DNA of 61,359 nt, counting the filler, from Circinaria calcarea (lineage: Eukaryota), in assembly GCA_051942165.1 (NCBI GenBank). It is 15 parts of 15 records of this genome, joined end to end, with 100 filler letters (N's around TTAATTAATTAA, not from the genome) between each part and the next. Parts side by side here need not be neighbours in the genome. Positions count along the whole stretch, not along the records: positions 32,837 to 36,830 come from JAVECS010002513.1; 14 more parts are not named here. The stretch is one strand, 5' to 3'. How positions within the stretch are numbered: the stretch's first letter is position 1; every line of letters begins with the position of its first letter. A model generated the notes under the pieces. It saw nothing but the letters and a program-made list of their open reading frames with translations, was not told where the DNA came from and did no database searches. Shown here in pieces: positions 1,260 through 57,556 of this stretch. Position numbers and translations under genes: made by a program.

Positions 1260-3831
1260 ATGACGGCTAACGATGATGAAATCCTGACTCCTAGACATCC
1301 GCCTGTTGGAAGGCTTTCTATCCGCAAAGCCTTTGATTCACTTAGCTCGACGCAGAAGCTCTATGCTCATCATACAGCCAGGTAGGAGAGAACTTTATTT
1401 ATAGATAATCACAGTGGTGGATTAAGATTCTCATGACTTGAAGCCTACTAAAGTATTAAGTTATCCAGAGCAGCATGGCATGGAGCACGTGTAATCCTAC
1501 GGCAGGTATCGCCGGAGTCTACACATATCTTTGACCTCCTTCTCGAGCTATACCGAACGTGTAACGGGCAGTGGGAAGACTTCGCCGACCAGGTCTCTAT
1601 CCCAAAGAGTAGTATAGAGGAGTTTCTCGAATATGCAGCGGTCTTTCTGGGCAACATTGGGAATTACTACGTAAGTTGACAAAGCTCAGCATAAAGGCCC
1701 CCGGTATTCAGCTCCTCTAGGGACGAGGAGATCAAAAGTTCATCCCTCGTCTCCCCAAAGAAGACCTACGAAGAATATGTACGCGCTCCACGAAAGCCAC
1801 AGAGCTGTATAATGCTGTTTCTGAGCCAATGTACGCAAGGCGCCCCAGCAGCCTGGGATTCCCGAGCAAGGTGGCGCAAAGCTCGTACTATCCAGGAGAC
1901 CTTTGTCTGACTCGTCAAGAGATTGACCAGGTATCGAAAGAGCTGGAAGTAGCATCAATTTACCCGGAAAACACCAGGATTACCAAAGTCAATGCGAACG
2001 GTAAGACTATCTACAATGTGCTTCAAGCTTCAGTAGAGAAAAACGATGGACATTCGCAAAAGATCTCTTCTCAGGATTCCTCGATAAGCCTCTATCTCCT
2101 CCGAGGAGATCACTCTGAAGAACTAAGTCGAGTGTGCAGTAGCCTTGAGAAGGCAAAGCAATACGCTGCGAACGGATTACAGAGAGATATCATCGAGCAG
2201 TACCTCCTCAGCTTCCGCTCCGGGGACATGGAGATATTCCGAGAATCGCAGAAATTGTGGGTCAAAGATATCAAACCCTCGGTGGAAACCCAGTTTGGTT
2301 TTGTCGAGCCATACCGCGATCCTTACGGGATCCGGGCAGAGTTTGAAGGATTAGTAGCGTTTGTGGATGAGGAAGAGACAAAGATGTTGACCAGACTGGT
2401 AGACGAGTCTGCAAAGTATATACGGTTGTTGCCATGGGTCAGTTCCGCTTGGAAGAGTGATGACAAAGGCCCATTCGAGAAAGAACCTTTTGAGCCTCCA
2501 GACTTTACTAGCCTACAAGGTGAGCAATGGGCCTCGATAGAGATCATCTGAAACTCATAAAGTTATCCCAATATAGCACTCGCCTATTGCTCAAGCATCA
2601 TCTTTCCTGGGATCAATCTTCCAAATGTACCAGCTAGGCTCTTCCCTTGAACCCCCTTCCCACACCTCTTCTAAGTCGAATCACAGTTCAACGACATCCG
2701 TCAGGATGTAGGGTTTAAAAATTTCATGATCTCCAATCAGATCGCAGCCGAATACGACTCCACCCGAGCGGCCCCAGCCTTTATCGATCCGTCAGATGTA
2801 GAGGTATACATGGCGTCAGAATACGAAGCCTACTACATCTGGGTCGTTTTGCATGAGCTCCTCGGTCACGGAACCGGGAAGCTTCTAACACAGTACGGGC
2901 CCGACTCTTTTAACTTTGACATCACCAACCCTCCGCTTAGCCCACTGACGGGAAAACCGATTAAGTCATGGTATAAGCCCGGGCAAAGCTGGACCGGTGT
3001 CTTTGGGGATCTCGCTACGAGCATTGACGAGTGTCGTGCAGAATGTGTAGGAGCTTACCTAATGGATAATGAGGAACTCCTTGAGCTGTGTGGATTCGAT
3101 CGTGACAAGATGTCAGCTGCGGACAGTACGGACCCGGTGCATATGGTCTGACCGATGATGAAAACCTGACGGGCAATCAGTCACATACAATGTCTACCTG
3201 CAGCTTGGTCTTGGAGGCCTCCGCGCCCTTGAAAACTACATTGAAGATGATCAAGTAAGACGTCATTTACATTACTCGATCCCCTCACTCCTGTTACCAT
3301 ACCATACCAAATCATTACAAACACTGACTGACAACTGTCTAGACTTGGGGCCAAGCCCACAGCCGCGTTCGTTCCATCCTCGCACTACCCATCTCCATCT
3401 CCATTACTATCACTAACAATCCTCCCCTTCTTCCTCCACAGGCCCACTTCGCCATTTTCCGTACCCTCCTCTCCGCCCCGGACTCATTCCTCACCATCCA
3501 CCATTCCCCCCTCTCCCAAACCCTCACCCTCCGCATCGACCGCTCCAAGCTCCTCACCCACGGCAAACCCGCCCTCGCCGCCTTGCTCCTCCGTCTGCAC
3601 ATTTACCGATGCACGGCCGATGTGGCGGCCTGCCGACGCTACTTTGAAGACCTGACGAGCGTCCAGGGCGTGTTTGCCGAGTGGAGGCGGATTGTACTGC
3701 GGGAGAAGCGGACGAGGAAGGTGCTGGTGCAGGCGAATACGGTACTGGAAGCGGATGGAAGTGTGGCGTTGAGGGAATACGAGGCGAGTAAGGAGGGAAT
3801 GGTGAGGAGTTGGGCAGAGAGGGGGGTTTGA
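1260..3831 (+). CDS. DPP3: Dipeptidyl peptidase III (M49 zinc metallopeptidase), about 8 exons
   Basis: HELLGH zinc motif, GFVEPYRDPYGIRAEFEG, GINLPN-FNDIRQDVGFKN, DECRAE and WGQAHSR-AHF. ATG at 1260; GT-AG introns starting near 1382, 1671, 2520, 2627, 3127, 3254 and 3367 keep the frame. Confidence 0.93.
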
Positions 3832-4010: not shown

Positions 4011-4110
4011 NNNNNNNNNNNNNNNNNNNNNNNNNNNNNNNNNNNNNNNNNNNNTTAATTAATTAANNNNNNNNNNNNNNNNNNNNNNNNNNNNNNNNNN
4101 NNNNNNNNNN
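4011..4110. other. Artificial contig-joining spacer (44 N + TTAATTAATTAA + 44 N); first of 14
   Basis: Identical 100-nt spacers at 4011-4110, 8120-8219, 12229-12328, 16335-16434, 20439-20538, 24542-24641, 28642-28741, 32737-32836, 36831-36930, 40925-41024, 45018-45117, 49109-49208, 53196-53295 and 57280-57379. TTAATTAATTAA gives stops in all six frames. Confidence 0.99.
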
Positions 4111-4449
4111 CCCCCAAACATCCAGTGAAATCTATTGTGCCGCCACCTATGCATCGTGGGATGCGCTTGGCAGGATTGGGCTAAAGGCGTTCATATACGC
4201 GCTTGGCAATCGTGCGGCCCCTTCGCAAGTCAACTCAAACTCCTTTCGACGTTCTCGAATCCTCAATTCTGTATTCAGGACTTTCAACATCACTGCTGTA
4301 TTCTTGTGGCCTCTCCTTCGCCGCTAATTTTAGTCCGTTCTTCCACGACATTCTAAAATGCCAAGGCTACAATACCGTGAGCTCCCAGAGCTTACGAACT
4401 GCCAAACGATGATCGAGCCACGACGAACTTCGTTTGCTGCTTCCCAGCA

Positions 4450-5451
4450 ATGGCCCCGAACCTTGCTGTGTCTCAGCATGCTATGATTCACGACATGCTT
4501 CTTGATGGTTCCCTCAAGTATGCCGAAATGGCGGCTGCTGCTCGCTGCAGCGAACGCGCCATCTATCGCATTGCGTCCAACATGAAATGCTTCGGGACCA
4601 CCAAAGCCCCTCACAACGGCGTAGGACGACCTCGACAAATGACTCGACTCATGCTAGATGCTCTTCGCGAACATTTGGTCGAAAAACCGGAGCTGTACCT
4701 CGAAGAAATGGTCGTCTTCTTGTACGATGACTTTAGCGTTCTCGTTGACCCTTCAACTGTCAGTAAAGCTCTGAAATCCATCAACTGGTCAAAGAAGAAG
4801 ATGCGCCAAATAGCTCGAGAACGCAATCCGGACCTTCGAGACTTCTATCTCCATGGAATATCATCCTTTCCATCCTGGCAGCTTGTCTATGTGGACGAGT
4901 CAGGATGCGACAAGCGAATTGGCTGTCGAAAAACGGGATGGTCTCCTCGTGGTGTAGCACTAGTGCATGTCACCGAGTATCACCGTGAGTCTAGATATCA
5001 GATACTGCCAGCTTACACCCAAGAAGGTATCCTGCTTTCCCGAGTATATCAAGGGAGCACGAATCGCGAGTTATATGAAGACTTCGTCGCGCAGCTTCTC
5101 CATCATTGCGGACGTTGGCCAGAGTCCAGATCTGTCATCATAATGGACAACGCATCATTTCACTATAGCGAACGGATCGACGAGATGTGCGCCGATGCCG
5201 GAGTGAAACTCGTCTACCTTCCTCCGTACTCCCCAGACCTAAATCCGATCGAAGAACTCTTCGCCGAACTAAAAGTATTCATCAAGAAGAACTGGAGGGG
5301 ATACGCAGACAACCCGGAACAAGAGTTTGAGGCATTCTTGGAGTGGTGTGTTAGTGTCGCTGGAGGGAGAAGACAGAGTGCAGAGGGACATTTCAGACAT
5401 GCAGGTCTCAATGTAGAATCATCTGAGGCAAGCAGTCGAGGAAAACCGTGA
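4450..5451 (+). mobile_element. Tc1/mariner-IS630 superfamily transposase (DD34E), intact 333-aa ORF
   Basis: N-terminal HTH region with GRPR linker; catalytic YVDESG, IIMDNASFH and YLPPYSPDLNPIEE; 34 residues between the second D and the E. TIRs not identifiable within the contig. Confidence 0.93.
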
Positions 5452-8119: not shown

Positions 8120-9192
8120 NNNNNNNNNNNNNNNNNNNNNNNNNNNNNNNNNNNNNNNNNNNNTTAATTAATTAANNNNNNNNNNNNNNNNNNNNNNNNN
8201 NNNNNNNNNNNNNNNNNNNGCATGGGAGGGGCTTGGGATGGTTTCGGGCTGGGGGGTTGGGAGGATGAGAGTAGCTGTCGCCAGCGCGGTTATCCCTTCC
8301 AGGTCCGGTGGCTCCTGGAAGTACTCGGGGGCGGCATGAGGCAGTATTCGCCGACCAAAGTGCATGGTTTTGCGACTGAGATCGGTTCGCCAGGTGCATT
8401 GATCGATGGTTGAGGAAAGTCGATGATTTGGGATTCTTCTTCACCCCGGACACGAAGTTGGGATATAGAAGGAGAGAGGTCTGGGACGGGCTTGCTTGCA
8501 AGGCGGGGGCAAGGAGACAACAGGGGAGGGCTTTTTCGCCCACTTTGGCGGTTTGGAGTCAAGAAAATCCGACAGGAGTTTAGTTTCCGCTTCTTGGTTT
8601 CCAGAAGACATTGGACGGAAAAAAAAACACACATTGTGGAATAAATAGACAACCATGTAGAGGGAGCAAGAGGGTTATAACAAATCCAATATATTAATGC
8701 TCTCCGCAGGGCTGAGACACGGGACTGGGTTTTTGGAGAGAAGGGAAGCCTATCTCGCCTCGGTAGATATACCTACGTTGAAGATAATTTTTACCAAGTT
8801 GCTTGCCTCTAGCATGGTGTCATTAGTTAGTTAGTGCCATATAAAATTGACGTCTGAGATCAGCCTCGATAAGCGCCGGGAGTACCCGTAGCTACGGCAG
8901 CTAATCCTAACCTAGCTAATCCGTTTTCCGTGAATTACCTTTTTGGCCTTCCCGTGAGATGATCGCATTTACTTGTTCTATTTATTTGGGATAAATCTTA
9001 ATAATGGATCTTAGGCTCGTTACATCAAAGGGATTAATTATATCGCGGAAGGTTGCCGCCATAGAAAATCGCTGCCCGAGAAGTGGTTTCATTAAACATA
9101 TCTTTCTTCTGTTTCTTTCTATAAGCATCACCAAAAAAGTCCAATTTCGAAATTATCCAATCACCAAACCCAAAAGTACCCGACACAAAGCC

Positions 9193-32736: not shown

Positions 32737-33382
32737 NNNNNNNNNNNNNNNNNNNNNNNNNNNNNNNNNNNNNNNNNNNNTTAATTAATTAANNNNNNNN
32801 NNNNNNNNNNNNNNNNNNNNNNNNNNNNNNNNNNNNTTTACAAGGAGCTTAGATGCAGTGGCTGTGATGGGTCGGCCGGGCTGAAAGGTAGAGAATCCCG
32901 GGTGGGAGTGGTGATAAAATCTTCACGTGTAATAATTTCACTCTATGAATGGTTTCGGCGTAAAAGATGTCTGTAATTATGAAGGCTTAAACATGTAAGA
33001 TATATGGTACAGCGACGATATATCTTACTACGTGGATATATTTGGTGGGTACATAATCATAGGAACTCTCCCCGGTACGAGCGGTAGGAGCTCTGGCCCA
33101 CTCACCCGTACTCGGTCGGTTCCCTTCGAGTTTAGGGCGGGTGCTTTCTTTGAACGTTCCTGGCAAGTCCACCATATTATCCTTCAACGTCCCTTCGCCA
33201 TGGTGTAGAAAACTCTCTAACCTCATCCTCATACTCTTCCATCCACGCCTTTTCAAAGTGTAGGAGCAGAGATACTATTGTACGCCTGTTGGGATTTTCT
33301 GTTGTGGCTATCTCCAATGCTTGTCCGCGTATTCCCTCTTTTCTCGAGCTCCTGTAGCCTAGGCTTCACGCCTGTTTCACGC

Positions 33383-34075
33383 CTATCCCCGGATCTGCTC
33401 CTCGGTGAATAGCGGTCTGAGATGGAACAGCCAATGCCAGAATCTGTTCCAGTAGTTCGTTCTCTTCATGATCACGCCATTCCTTCTCGCTGACACATCC
33501 CCTTTCTCCTCTTTCCTCGACTTTACAGATTTCTCTGCGTCCCAGTAGGGCTTGCACAATCGGAAGCGGTTATATAAATTCTTGGGACGGTAATTGAGGC
33601 GATTGCTGTATTTGTATTTGCAAATTTTGGGCATTCTGGGGAATTTGACGAGGGCGATTGGATCAAGGTCCGTATCTTCCGCAGTGGCTGTGGTCATAGT
33701 CGCTACGGAATCTTCGACAGCGGTGTTTCCTTTCATGTCAACAATATCACGTTTCCCAGACTTGGCCAGTGTCTTGGCGTCCTCCGCGTCCCAGTATTTC
33801 TTGCAGAGCAGTTCGCGATAGTAGAGTTGCTGAGGGCCATAGTAATGATGGAGGCGGTTTTCGTGTTTGCGGCGACATATCTTGGGCATGCGTGGTATCC
33901 CGTAATTGATAGAAACGAGGTGCGGGTCGAAATCAGTCACATTCAATGCAGTGGCGAGATACTCCATAGTGAGATTTTTGGGAGGATTGACAGTGTCTGC
34001 AGAGAGTGGAGCGAGTATAGGTGCTGCGTACACAGCTGCTTCGAGCAGCACACCGAAGAGAAGACTGAGCTGCAT
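33383..34075 (-). CDS. Secreted 230-aa repeat-containing peptide precursor (KEP-like)
   Basis: Signal peptide MQLSLLFGVLLEAAVYA-AP; two internal repeats PRMPKIC..NRL..LY..LCKxYWDAE; dibasic sites KR108-109, RK187-188, RR197-198 and KR204-205; intronless. Confidence 0.8.
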   Translation of the reverse strand: MQLSLLFGVLLEAAVYAAPILAPLSADTVNPPKNLTMEYLATALNVTDFDPHLVSINYGIPRMPKICRRKHENRLHHYYGPQQLYYRELLCKKYWDAEDAKTLAKSGKRDIVDMKGNTAVEDSVATMTTATAEDTDLDPIALVKFPRMPKICKYKYSNRLNYRPKNLYNRFRLCKPYWDAEKSVKSRKEEKGDVSARRNGVIMKRTNYWNRFWHWLFHLRPLFTEEQIRG

Positions 34076-34849
34076 GTTGTGATTGTTGGCAGAGTGGACT
34101 ATCTACCTTGGATGAGACGGATTTGCTGTAAGAGCTTGAGGAGCTCTTCAGTGTTAGAGAGATGTGACTGCTCGCATAAGACCTTGCCTGTGCACTTTAG
34201 ACTTATACCACTAAGCTCACTAACACAGAGAGAAGAAACATGGAAAACAATCCACCCGAACCATGAAAGGATGAAGTCCAGCAAAACATAAAATGTACGG
34301 AACGTCATCAGCACGAGAGATACTTTTACGTATCTTGGGATGATGCATCTGGTAGCCAGTTCCCACCCCCATTTACTTGGGAAGATATTCTAGTGCAAGT
34401 CATCTGCCGAGACCAGAAGGGAAGCGGAGGAGTATAATGCTGGAACGAAAGGCATCTTCCTGTTCTGGAGCTTAACTTTGAGAAAAGAATCTTTGTACGG
34501 TGACTATCAGAAGAATCCATGTCTTCCTAAGAAGCCAACCATCTGGCCTACACGCTTTGCGGGGAAGACTAGACATACGTAGTTGCAGATTAGTGCATTG
34601 CAACCAGCGCTTTGAGAATAAGGTTAAGCTATTGTACTCTCGAGGATGGAAGGCCGTCTCATGTACTGCACCAGAATAGAATGTTTTAGCGTGTGTAGTG
34701 AGTGACCCAGCGCAAAGGACGTCATAGCATCCAATTCACTTGTTGCTCTGAATCACTTTCCTAATCTTTCCTACCTCCCCACTCTCTCCAGCACGCTTCA
34801 ATCTAAAGAATCCACACGTTCAATCCACCAATCAAGCAACCTAGTCAAA

Positions 34850-35569
34850 ATGGTGACCAACACCACCGACCACGCCGGAGCCCGCTCAGGCACCGACACC
34901 ATGAACGCCCTCAAGTCCGGCGTAGCTGGCATCCATGTACATTTTCCCCTTCCTACCTTCCTCCCCTTCCTCGACCCTTTCTAACCCTACCCCGCAGGGC
35001 GTTGGCGAGACCATCCGTGGAAACTTCAACCAAGCCGTCGATACCGCTTTCAACGACAAGGCCGGGCAAGCCAAGAATCAGCAGGTCGCCAACCAAGGGC
35101 TCAATGAGATCAATGATGGCCAGTACAGAGGCCATCACGAGACCTCGGGCGCAGGGATGGGGATAGGCGCGACGAATACCGGGATGGGTCCTGCTACCAC
35201 TACCACTACCACTACAGGTACAGGGACGACGGGGACGATGAGCGGGGGCGGACTCGGCGGGTCTTCAAATCACGGGCCTCATGGGAGTAATCTGTTGAAC
35301 AAGCTGGATCCGAGGGTGGACAGCGATATGGGTATGTAATCGAACTGCATTTCCCAGGTTTTTATTATTCAAATTCTCTTCTCCCCTCGCCCCGCAAAAT
35401 ATCCCCGAGTGACTAACTTTCCCACCCAGACCACCGCGGCACCACAACCACCACCGGCCAATCCACCACGAGCAATCCGAGCGCAAACGCAAATACAAAC
35501 ACTGGGTACTCCAGCACCCTAGGGAACAAGCTAGACCCGAGCGTGCACTCGGGGGGCCCTCGGTACTGA
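34850..35569 (+). CDS. Fungal dehydrin-like hydrophilin (DPR motif)
   Basis: Exons 34850-34936, 34998-35331 and 35430-35569. GIH-GVGETIRG N-terminal block; Gly/Thr-rich; GPHGSNLLNKLDPRVDSD-D and a second GNKLDPSVHS. Confidence 0.82.
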
Positions 35570-36221
35570 TCTGGCACAGCTTCGATACTGACACCTTTCG
35601 TGACCGGGAACGAATGATGGGAACAATGGCAGCTCAGGGAGGAAGAGGGATGGAGTGGAATGATGCGACTTGCAGGGGAAGAAATGTTTTGCTTGCTATG
35701 AGCGGACATGCGTGACGAACTTGATGCTTTTAGATACCCGATAGCAATGTTGCTAATCACTCAGGCAGAGAAATGATACCCAAATTACTCCATCACGCAG
35801 GTCAATCAAGCGAGGGATGCTTCGCGATCTTCTCCCAATAGTGACTGCCTCAATTGAGTGAGTGAGTGTTCCAAGGACTTTGGTTTCCCGGGAAGAATCC
35901 AAGGGTATCACGAATACAGCTTCGAAGCCACTGTCAACCTACATGCACATGCACACGCACACCTGGTTGACATGATTGAGGCGAATAAAGCCCATAATGA
36001 ATAGCTAAAATCTTACAGAGTAAGCCCCCCCTAATACAAACCCTCTAAAAAAGAAAAAAAAAAAAAAGGATAAACCCAGCCCAGCTTTTTACTTTAAGCA
36101 ATATCCCTGCAAAATATGCCACTCAAGCCCCATCTAAAAAGGATAATAGCCATTCTCCCTACATCTATCGTCACTCCTCACTCCTCACTCCTCATTCGGT
36201 CCTCATTCAACCATACACTAC

Positions 36222-36830
36222 TCAAACTACAAACCACAAGTCAGCCAAGGCCCTCCTACCGACCCACACCGAAAAGGAAAAAAGGAGGTACTCACATCTC
36301 AAGTCCCAGCCAATCTGCGGCCCCAACTTCGGCAGCTCATCCGCCACACTCTGCACGTCCTTGTCCCCCCTTCCACTGAGACAAATCACCACATCCTCCT
36401 CCTTGCCCATCGTCTTCGCCAGCTCCAACGCGCCCCAAACCGCATGCGACGTCTCCAGCGCGGGGATAATGCCCTCCAGTTGACTGAGTAATCGGAAGCC
36501 CTTAAACGCCTCGGCGTCAGTCGCGGCGATGAATTTCGCCCTCTCGGTATCTTTCCATGAACTGAGCTCAGGGCCAACACCAGGGTAATCGAGACCTGCA
36601 GAGACAGAGTGAGTGTCGGAGATCTGGCCGTGTCTGTTTTGAAGGACGTAGGTTCGGACGCCGTGGAGGACGCCCTTTGTACCGCCGGTAAGAGTCGCGC
36701 TGTGGCGTTCCGTGTCGAGACCATCGCCACCGGCTTCGACGCCGAGGAGTTTGACAGATGGGTCTTGAGAAAAGGGGTAGAACATTCCTGCAGCGTTACT
36801 GCCACCACCAACACATGCGACGACAGCGTC
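36222..36830 (-). CDS. TRP5: Tryptophan synthase (beta domain), C-terminal part
   Basis: [41 protein letters not shown] and CLSGRGDKD; terminal intron 36295-36227 before the final F*. Confidence 0.97.
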
Positions 36831-57279: not shown

Positions 57280-57556
57280 NNNNNNNNNNNNNNNNNNNNN
57301 NNNNNNNNNNNNNNNNNNNNNNNTTAATTAATTAANNNNNNNNNNNNNNNNNNNNNNNNNNNNNNNNNNNNNNNNNNNNCTAGATCCCCTCGGACAGGAA
57401 TAACAATAACAAACTTCTTCTTCTTCCGAACTCTTCCTCTTGAAGCCGCCATCGCCCGAGATAAATAACGATCTCCATACTTGCTCTTCGCTTCGCTTCT
57501 TGTATTCATCCGTATATATACGGCCTTCCCCCCCCCATTATTGGGAGTTATCCACC

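Follow-up and report, generated by a model that had tools for sequence, protein, structure and literature searches.

The DNA analysed here, hereafter the window, is a stretch of 61,359 nucleotides from Circinaria calcarea (GenBank assembly GCA_051942165.1), made up of 15 unrelated pieces of about 4.0 kb that are joined in falling size order by 14 spacers, each of 44 N, TTAATTAATTAA and another 44 N (positions 4011-4110, 8120-8219, and so on to 57280-57379). Because the pieces are unlinked, gene order across the spacers is without meaning, and the only sequence truly linked to the gene described here is the piece that carries it (32837..36830, 3,994 bp), which agrees in length with the contig recorded for P0001 (the protein of this gene) in the protein database. 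The gene is an open reading frame (ORF) at 33383..34075 on the minus strand, with 230 codons plus a stop, an ATG start and no intron required. We refer to its protein as P0001 and to the two homologs of that protein as P0002 and P0003. P0001 starts with a probable signal peptide (34025..34075, amino acids (aa) 1-17), which is followed by an N-terminal region (33938..34024, aa 18-46), a first repeat module (33773..33937, aa 47-101), an acidic linker (33674..33748, aa 110-134), a second repeat module (33524..33673, aa 135-184), a basic stretch (33461..33523, aa 185-205) and an aromatic segment of 25 residues rich in Trp, Phe and His at the C-terminus (33386..33460, aa 206-230), all on the minus strand. 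The gene is a real coding orphan gene, and the searches described below place it in a new sequence family and in no named one.

An earlier note on this DNA, made from the sequence alone, had described an intronless ORF of 230 aa at 33383-34075, and this is confirmed on the minus strand with an ATG start (context CAACATG) and an in-frame stop nine codons 5' of it. A TATAAG hexamer read from the sequence (34202..34207, minus strand) lies 132 nt 5' of the ATG and is weak support for the gene, as such hexamers frequently occur by chance. A codon-usage model derived from five genes of this assembly with Pfam support gives the sense frame a log-odds score of +0.108 bits per codon, and the remaining five frames are all negative. 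A chance or decaying ORF, or a real gene in the antisense frame instead, might be argued from the position of this score under the 0.15-0.22 of the housekeeping genes used for training, and from a 237-codon stop-free frame that overlaps the gene on the opposite strand (33578..34291, plus strand). However, the antisense frames score from -0.04 to -0.34 (the ATG ORF on the plus strand, -0.087), and the frame at 33578..34291 is thus a shadow of the real one. Moreover, P0001 aligns colinearly with P0002 (80% identity) and P0003 (46-51% identity, depending on the tool) over the full length, with every indel in frame and with invariant Cys and Trp motifs. Between the two repeats of P0001, the proportion of differing nonsynonymous sites (pN = 0.34) is far under that of synonymous sites (pS = 0.85), which also speaks against a non-functional ORF, and we consider both versions of this explanation extremely improbable. 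As the synonymous sites are saturated, no ratio of nonsynonymous to synonymous rates (dN/dS) can be computed between the repeats; the loop has a pN of 0.40 and the flanks one of 0.29. The level of pN against a saturated pS implies that the duplication is old and that both copies have been retained by selection. The pS over 33524-33937 even exceeds the saturation expectation of 0.75, in a small sample of 30 synonymous sites, which may reflect differing codon choice in the two copies.

The repeat structure of P0001 is evident from its own sequence. When aa 1-120 are compared with aa 121-230 by BLASTP, 47.7% of the 65 aligned residues are identical (E = 4.6e-17), and the local score between the two halves (141) was reached by none of 1000 shuffles (mean 26.0, standard deviation 4.6, maximum 50). 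The two repeats of the earlier note are therefore far beyond chance and its coordinates exact (aa 61-98, nt 33895-33782; aa 146-181, nt 33640-33533), and the acidic D-x-D-P segment that it saw ahead of each is present as D48-F-D-P51 and D136-L-D-P139. The repeat unit is longer than first drawn, because it already begins at T-D-[FL]-D-P; the full unit opens with T-D-[FL]-D-P, passes through P-R-M-P-K-I-C and then 21-23 loop residues, and closes with L-C-K-x-Y-W-D-A-E. In module 1 the lead-in is T-D-F-D-P, and M-P-K-I-C67 and L-C91-K-K-Y-W-D-A-E enclose a loop of 23 residues; in module 2 the lead-in is T-D-L-D-P, and M-P-K-I-C152 and L-C174-K-P-Y-W-D-A-E enclose a loop of 21. Cys occurs at just four positions of the protein (67, 91, 152 and 174), two in each repeat as noted earlier and none outside the repeats.

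The same unit recurs in the homologs, giving seven modules in the three proteins, with loops of 19-23 aa and a module length of 36-39 aa. The M-P pair, both Cys, the Lys three residues after the first Cys, the Arg three residues before the L-C pair and the segment L-C-x-x-Y-W-D-x-E are invariant in 7/7 modules. Since these units were extracted by a pattern that demands such flanks, the independent fact is that neither P0001 nor P0002 nor P0003 has any Cys outside the modules. A hidden Markov model of the seven modules detects only two domains in P0001 and only two in P0002. A third, degenerate repeat in the tail was considered, because MAFFT had set aa 195-230 against module 3 of P0003, and was rejected: the score was reached by 1091 of 2000 shuffles for P0001 and by 1383 of 2000 for P0002. 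Likewise, tblastn found no frameshifted module remnant downstream of the P0001 gene and no paralogs in the window, where the next-best matches had E values of 0.37-8.6.

Searches of sequence and structure databases leave this family isolated. Among about 15 billion proteins P0001 has two relatives only, P0002 and P0003, each of which is a singleton cluster from read-archive assemblies. An exhaustive phmmer search over 1.84 billion cluster representatives returned P0001 itself and P0003 only, and a word-indexed search over 5.8 billion clusters returned P0001 itself and P0002 only. With a profile built from all three proteins, no further member turned up among 6219 candidates, and a two-row module profile found P0001 and P0002 only among 13 candidates drawn from longer proteins, a profile that is insensitive because it missed the known relative P0003. 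In Pfam, P0001 has a single sub-threshold match (14.5 bits against a cut-off of 25) and P0002 and P0003 have none; a profile search of all sequences in the PDB gave a best E value of 1.3, and a Foldseek search of the PDB with the module model gave 0 matches at E <= 10. Rfam gave 0 matches over the whole window. The earlier note had recognised no named family, and in Pfam, in the PDB sequences and at the level of fold this view is upheld. In a language-model Atlas, the whole protein drew leads of 0.75-0.77 to clusters labelled 'Pheromone 1' and MF_alpha_N, all from Ascomycota, where any score under 0.8 counts as chance according to the tool's own figures; for the module by itself there was no usable match. 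A text search of a library of papers for five module motifs found nothing relevant (0 matches for the two Y-W-D motifs), and six motifs had 0 matches in the supplements of two surveys of repeat proteins that Kex2 processes (KEPs), a null of little weight because Table S2 of the Umemura supplement gives accessions and not sequences.

P0002 (230 aa) is much closer to P0001 than is P0003, which has 257 aa and three modules. The identities are unevenly spread along the protein. The module-1 loop is identical to P0002 at 22/23 sites (96%) and to P0003 at 16/23 (70%), and the module-1 core at 35/36 and 26/36 sites. Identity in module 2 is lower than in module 1, both in the core (27/34 to P0002 and 15/34 to P0003) and in the loop (15/21 and 6/21). 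The linker is 45% identical to that of P0003, and the tail (aa 182-230) is identical at 41/49 sites to P0002 and at only 11/49 (22%) to P0003, where the third module stands instead. In these comparisons no segment of the protein is better conserved than the module-1 loop, and only the later modules drift. The prediction of fixed flanks around a variable loop, from which the earlier note had argued for diversifying selection, is thus not matched. Module 2 of P0001 resembles module 3 of P0003 (57%) more than it does module 2 of P0003 (41%), which suggests a copy-number change by gain or loss of a middle module. The modules carry net charges of +4 and +9 in P0001 (+4 and +8/+9 over P0001 and P0002) and of +2, 0 and -3 in P0003. 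Since the charge is not kept in P0003, the cationic character ascribed earlier to the peptides is a trait of one lineage and not of the family.

It is also likely that the protein enters the secretory pathway. Hydrophobicity in windows of 19 aa peaks at aa 3-21 (Kyte-Doolittle 2.01), V15-Y16-A17 agrees with the -3/-1 rule, and by this rule of thumb a cut is expected after A17; the hydrophobic N-terminal segment is kept in P0002 and P0003, and AlphaFold2 (AF2) predicts a helix at aa 4-17. The signal peptide proposed in the earlier note is therefore supported at the level of a rule of thumb. Two N-glycosylation sequons in the N-terminal region, N34 and N45, are at the same positions in 3/3 proteins, and a sequon in the linker, N117, is present in P0002 and P0003. 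Together, the hydrophobic N-terminus and the two conserved sequons suggest that the protein is probably secreted. The AF2 model of module 1 (aa 44-109, four alignment rows) has a mean predicted local distance difference test (pLDDT) of 67, with 73-83 in the core, and contains a helix at aa 81-105. Along this predicted helix L84, R87/E88, C91, Y94/W95 and E98 are conserved every 3-4 positions, and they would therefore form one helix face. In the full-length model only the modules exceed a pLDDT of 50; aa 18-59, which include the N-terminal region, and aa 107-145 fall below 50, and a low-confidence helix is placed at aa 208-217. The acidic linker is predicted to be disordered, and aa 110-145 have an isoelectric point (pI) of 4.05 with 8 Asp/Glu against 2 Lys/Arg.

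How the protein might be processed was judged from its dibasic sites. In the matrix of Bader et al. for Kex2, P1 is Arg only and P2 is Lys or Arg (PMC2515848). Basic pairs in P0001 begin at residues 68, 69, 92, 108, 187, 197 and 204, and the canonical sites have their P1 residue at 69, 109, 198 and 205 in P0001, at 69, 109 and 205 in P0002 and at 109 and 236 in P0003. K108-R109 (33749..33754, minus strand) is the only basic pair between the modules of P0001 and the sole canonical Kex2-type site common to 3/3 proteins, in the same alignment column. It lies in a block of nine residues, K-S-x-K-R-[DN]-[IV]-V-D, of which six are invariant within an otherwise poorly conserved linker, and its acidic P1' and P4' residues match the extended Kex2 preference (PMC2515848). 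The basic stretch contains R187K188, R197R198 and K204R205; K204R205 is kept in P0002, and all three are absent from P0003. R68R69 and K235R236 of P0003 fall inside loops. Upstream of module 1, all three proteins lack a basic pair, and P0003 has no site from residue 110 to the loop of module 3. These patterns suggest that P0001 is probably cut once by Kex2, at 108/109. The earlier note had held that dibasic sites separate the modules and had proposed their conservation, with that of the Cys pair, as a check. K108R109 does lie between the modules and the Cys pair is kept in 7/7 of them, but module 1 has no site before it, other sites are inside loops, and no canonical dibasic site except K108R109 is kept in 3/3 proteins.

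The same sites bear on the proposal of that note that P0001 is a KEP-like polyprotein, in which Kex2, with or without other proteases, would free each Cys-looped cationic module as a bioactive peptide, be it antimicrobial, signal or effector. On this view the aromatic 25-mer that directly follows K204R205 would be freed too. Such a precursor would account for the signal peptide, the internal repeats and the [KR]R pairs at 69, 109, 198 and 205 of P0001, for the strongly basic modules of P0001 and P0002 and for the conservation of the tail after K204R205 in P0002; the Atlas leads to pheromone-like clusters point the same way, and long repeats have a precedent in Rep1 of Ustilago (PMC3133707, PMC6339444). 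However, the Atlas scores are at chance level, and cuts made in silico do not keep to the register of the repeats: they split the modules, in the loops and after C-R-R and C-K-K. The lack of a basic pair before module 1, the site-free stretch of P0003 and the non-positive modules 2 and 3 of that protein are equally at odds with the release of two looped peptides, as is the retention of just one site in 3/3 proteins. P0001 and its homologs fall outside both published KEP rules. The rule of Le Marquer et al. 2019 asks for a signal peptide, for repeats of at least 15% of the protein and for at least 4 fragments after KR/RR cuts, of which at least 3 are similar (PMC6339444). P0001 has the signal peptide by rule of thumb and two modules of 36-39 aa that make up about 33% of its 230 aa, but the cuts yield 5 fragments in P0001, 4 in P0002 and 3 in P0003 with no three similar, as judged by eye against the module boundaries and not with Fimo. 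Under the rule of Umemura 2020, a protein must carry no fewer than 3 tandem repeats, each 8 aa or longer and each lying between KR/KK/RK/RR sites (PMC7329392); the module count is two in P0001 and in P0002 and three in P0003, and the sites cut within the modules and not around them. We regard the polyprotein as unlikely.

A different use of the same site would be a pro-protein like that of the killer toxins: two homologous subunits would border a spacer that is acidic and glycosylated, and once Kex2 has parted them they would remain associated as a heterodimeric antifungal toxin. Killer preprotoxins have the layout alpha/gamma/beta. A pre-pro-protein of about 230 aa with homologous N- and C-terminal modules, an acidic middle linker with the sequon N117 in P0002 and P0003, and a K-R at the start of this linker would suit such an arrangement. 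But the C-terminal end of the linker has no conserved basic site, each module would hold one disulfide and is predicted to be helical and not alpha/beta, P0003 has three modules, and neither sequence nor fold matches any solved structure. A complex prediction of aa 18-107 with aa 110-230 scored 0.00, which weighs neither way. These differences make a killer-toxin-like protein quite improbable.

We favour, at about even chances, the explanation that P0001 is a small, lineage-restricted secreted glycoprotein of an ascomycete-like fungus, built of disulfide-stapled helical modules with acidic disordered linkers and probably cut once by Kex2. In this explanation a cleaved signal peptide would precede a short N-glycosylated leader, two modules (three in P0003) and a variable C-terminus, with acidic disordered linkers joining modules of about 40-55 residues. 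One disulfide per module would tie the strand-like M-P-[KE]-[IL]-C segment to the L-C-x-x-Y-W-D-x-E end of the long helix; given this tie and the conserved helix face, the module looks like a folded, stapled domain and not like a floppy variable loop. The modules most likely function whole and folded, and module 1 would be the conserved working part; fast evolution would mark the later modules and the C-terminus, as in the change between two and three modules. A Golgi cut by Kex2 at K108-R109 would leave module 1 on one piece, aa 18-107 (about 10.4 kDa without glycans), and module 2 on the other, aa 110-230. As the mature P0001 has a pI of 9.6, our guess for its role is binding to an anionic extracellular surface, either cell wall or membrane.

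Several observations weigh against this explanation. The family has three members, so that statements on conservation rest on two comparisons. The n-region of the putative signal peptide has no basic residue. The module-1 model is of moderate confidence, and the full-length model is poor (mean pLDDT 47.5, predicted template modelling score 0.25). The extra canonical sites of P0001 and P0002 (R68R69 and K204R205 in both, R197R198 in P0001 only) would allow more pieces than two, and the Atlas leads, at their chance-level scores, would fit a processed precursor equally well. Furthermore, the proposed function draws on a charge that P0003 does not keep. A more far-reaching possibility, which we think improbable, is that the family is matured by Kex2 into fungal peptide ligands or host-defence peptides of a new class. 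The conserved, stapled helical module 1 would then serve outside the cell as a signal or an antimicrobial, with further activities added by the later modules and the C-terminal peptide. If so, module 1 would be released at about 90 residues with its glycosylated leader, or at about 40 if a second protease trims it, the added activities would come from the faster-evolving later modules and, in this lineage, from the Trp-rich peptide of 25 residues after K204R205, and the motif M-P-K-[IL]-C ... L-C-x-x-Y-W-D-x-E would define a fold with no solved or catalogued relative.

Two other genes share the piece with P0001. A divergent neighbour (34851..35569, plus strand) encodes a low-complexity protein rich in Gly, Thr and Asn in which the motif N-K-L-D-P-[RS]-V recurs; the gene has one intron or more (about 34937-34997), its exon structure being read by eye; its start codon is 775 bp from that of P0001, with which it shares the upstream region, and its two largest ORF pieces have no match in Pfam. 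At the other end lies the 3' part of a gene for a pyridoxal-phosphate-dependent enzyme (36222..36830, minus strand; PALP, PF00291, E = 2.8e-13), which is cut by the contig end and which we take to be tryptophan-synthase-beta-like. The small size of this linked context matters for the possibility that P0001 is a dikaritin-like precursor of a ribosomally synthesised and post-translationally modified peptide, with Tyr-rich loops cross-linked by a UstYa/DUF3328 enzyme encoded off this contig. Five Tyr per module in P0001, the signal peptide and the K-R sites would be in keeping with it, 3,994 bp leaves room for an enzyme gene elsewhere, and a DUF3328 gene is near 22% of KEPs (PMC7329392). Yet Tyr content is not kept (2 and 3 Tyr in modules 2 and 3 of P0003), and dikaritin-type precursors have many short cores, each flanked by Kex2 sites (PMC7329392), whereas the P0001 family has two or three long modules whose conserved Cys, Trp and helix-face residues are of the folded-domain type. 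A Pfam scan of 42 other ORFs of at least 150 codons in the window (15 of the 58 such ORFs, mostly overlapping shadow frames, were left out) found no DUF3328, which carries little weight either way as the pieces are unlinked. For the same reason, with only 3,994 bp truly linked to the gene, the remark of the earlier note that no UstYa gene is on this contig has no weight as an argument. On the whole we hold a dikaritin-like product to be very improbable.

The other pieces of the window carry genes for a Vps34-like PI3-kinase, Cdc6/Orc1, the C-terminus of REV1, Dbf4, Hsp70 and Rpb5, which are eukaryotic and largely of fungal type, and one piece has a DUF1774 gene, described in Pfam as "fungal protein". 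On one of these contigs, an ORF for a DDE_3 superfamily endonuclease, a transposase, was found at 4381-5451 (plus strand, E = 5.5e-31), and on another a gene for a peptidase M49 (dipeptidyl-peptidase III-like) extends over three ORFs at 1721-3831 (plus strand). The M49 gene is split as by short introns, which supports a eukaryotic, fungal-type genome.

As it stands, the gene encodes one of many orphan fungal secreted proteins, an ordinary and very large class. Should the module be a genuine stapled mini-domain and have an extracellular target, it would add another small fold to the poorly charted lineage-specific secretome of fungi, and its roughly 40 residues and single disulfide would make it a compact scaffold open to chemical synthesis. 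We think the methodological lesson matters more: repeats and scattered dibasic pairs are insufficient to call a Kex2 polyprotein. In this case site conservation among homologs leaves one credible cut only, and what looked like genomic context came from the joining of separate contigs.

Compared with known systems, the P0001 family shares several features with KEPs such as the alpha-factor precursors, Rep1 of Ustilago and Ece1 of Candida, namely a signal peptide, a leader with N-glycosylation, repeats within the chain and one or more canonical K-R pairs that stand between repeats and precede acidic residues. Rep1 yields 11 peptides (PMC3133707) that are 37 aa long (PMC6339444). In contrast to KEPs, with their three or more repeats delimited by sites, there are two or three modules of about 40-55 aa here with one conserved site, and the modules resemble folded disulfide domains and not linear cores. 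The likeness to ascomycete alpha-type pheromone precursors lies in the pre-pro layout and in the weak Atlas leads. Some pheromone repeats carry two conserved Cys and a C-terminal Trp, but alpha-type peptides are 9-24 aa long and are each flanked by K-R and X-A/X-P dipeptides (PMC6339444), whereas the modules of the P0001 family have 36-39 aa, with loops of 19-23 aa alone, and the K-R is followed by D-I-V-D or N-V-V-D and not by STE13-type dipeptides. In cleavage pattern, the single conserved site resembles that of the Kex2-processed pro-domain effectors, e.g., SnTox3 (bioRxiv 10.1101/2020.05.27.120113): K108R109 occupies residues 91-92 of a mature chain of 213 residues, the site is present in 3/3 proteins and aa 18-59 are predicted to be disordered. 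However, unlike the disordered pro-domain of those effectors, the part of P0001 upstream of the site holds module 1, with a pLDDT of 57-83 at aa 61-106 and the highest conservation. Finally, P0001 resembles repeat-containing secreted effectors of plant-associated fungi, such as Rsp3, in being a small secreted protein with tandem repeats that vary in number (2 versus 3); it differs from them in sequence, and its modules are marked by a motif of their own, M-P-K-[IL]-C ... L-C-x-x-Y-W-D-x-E.

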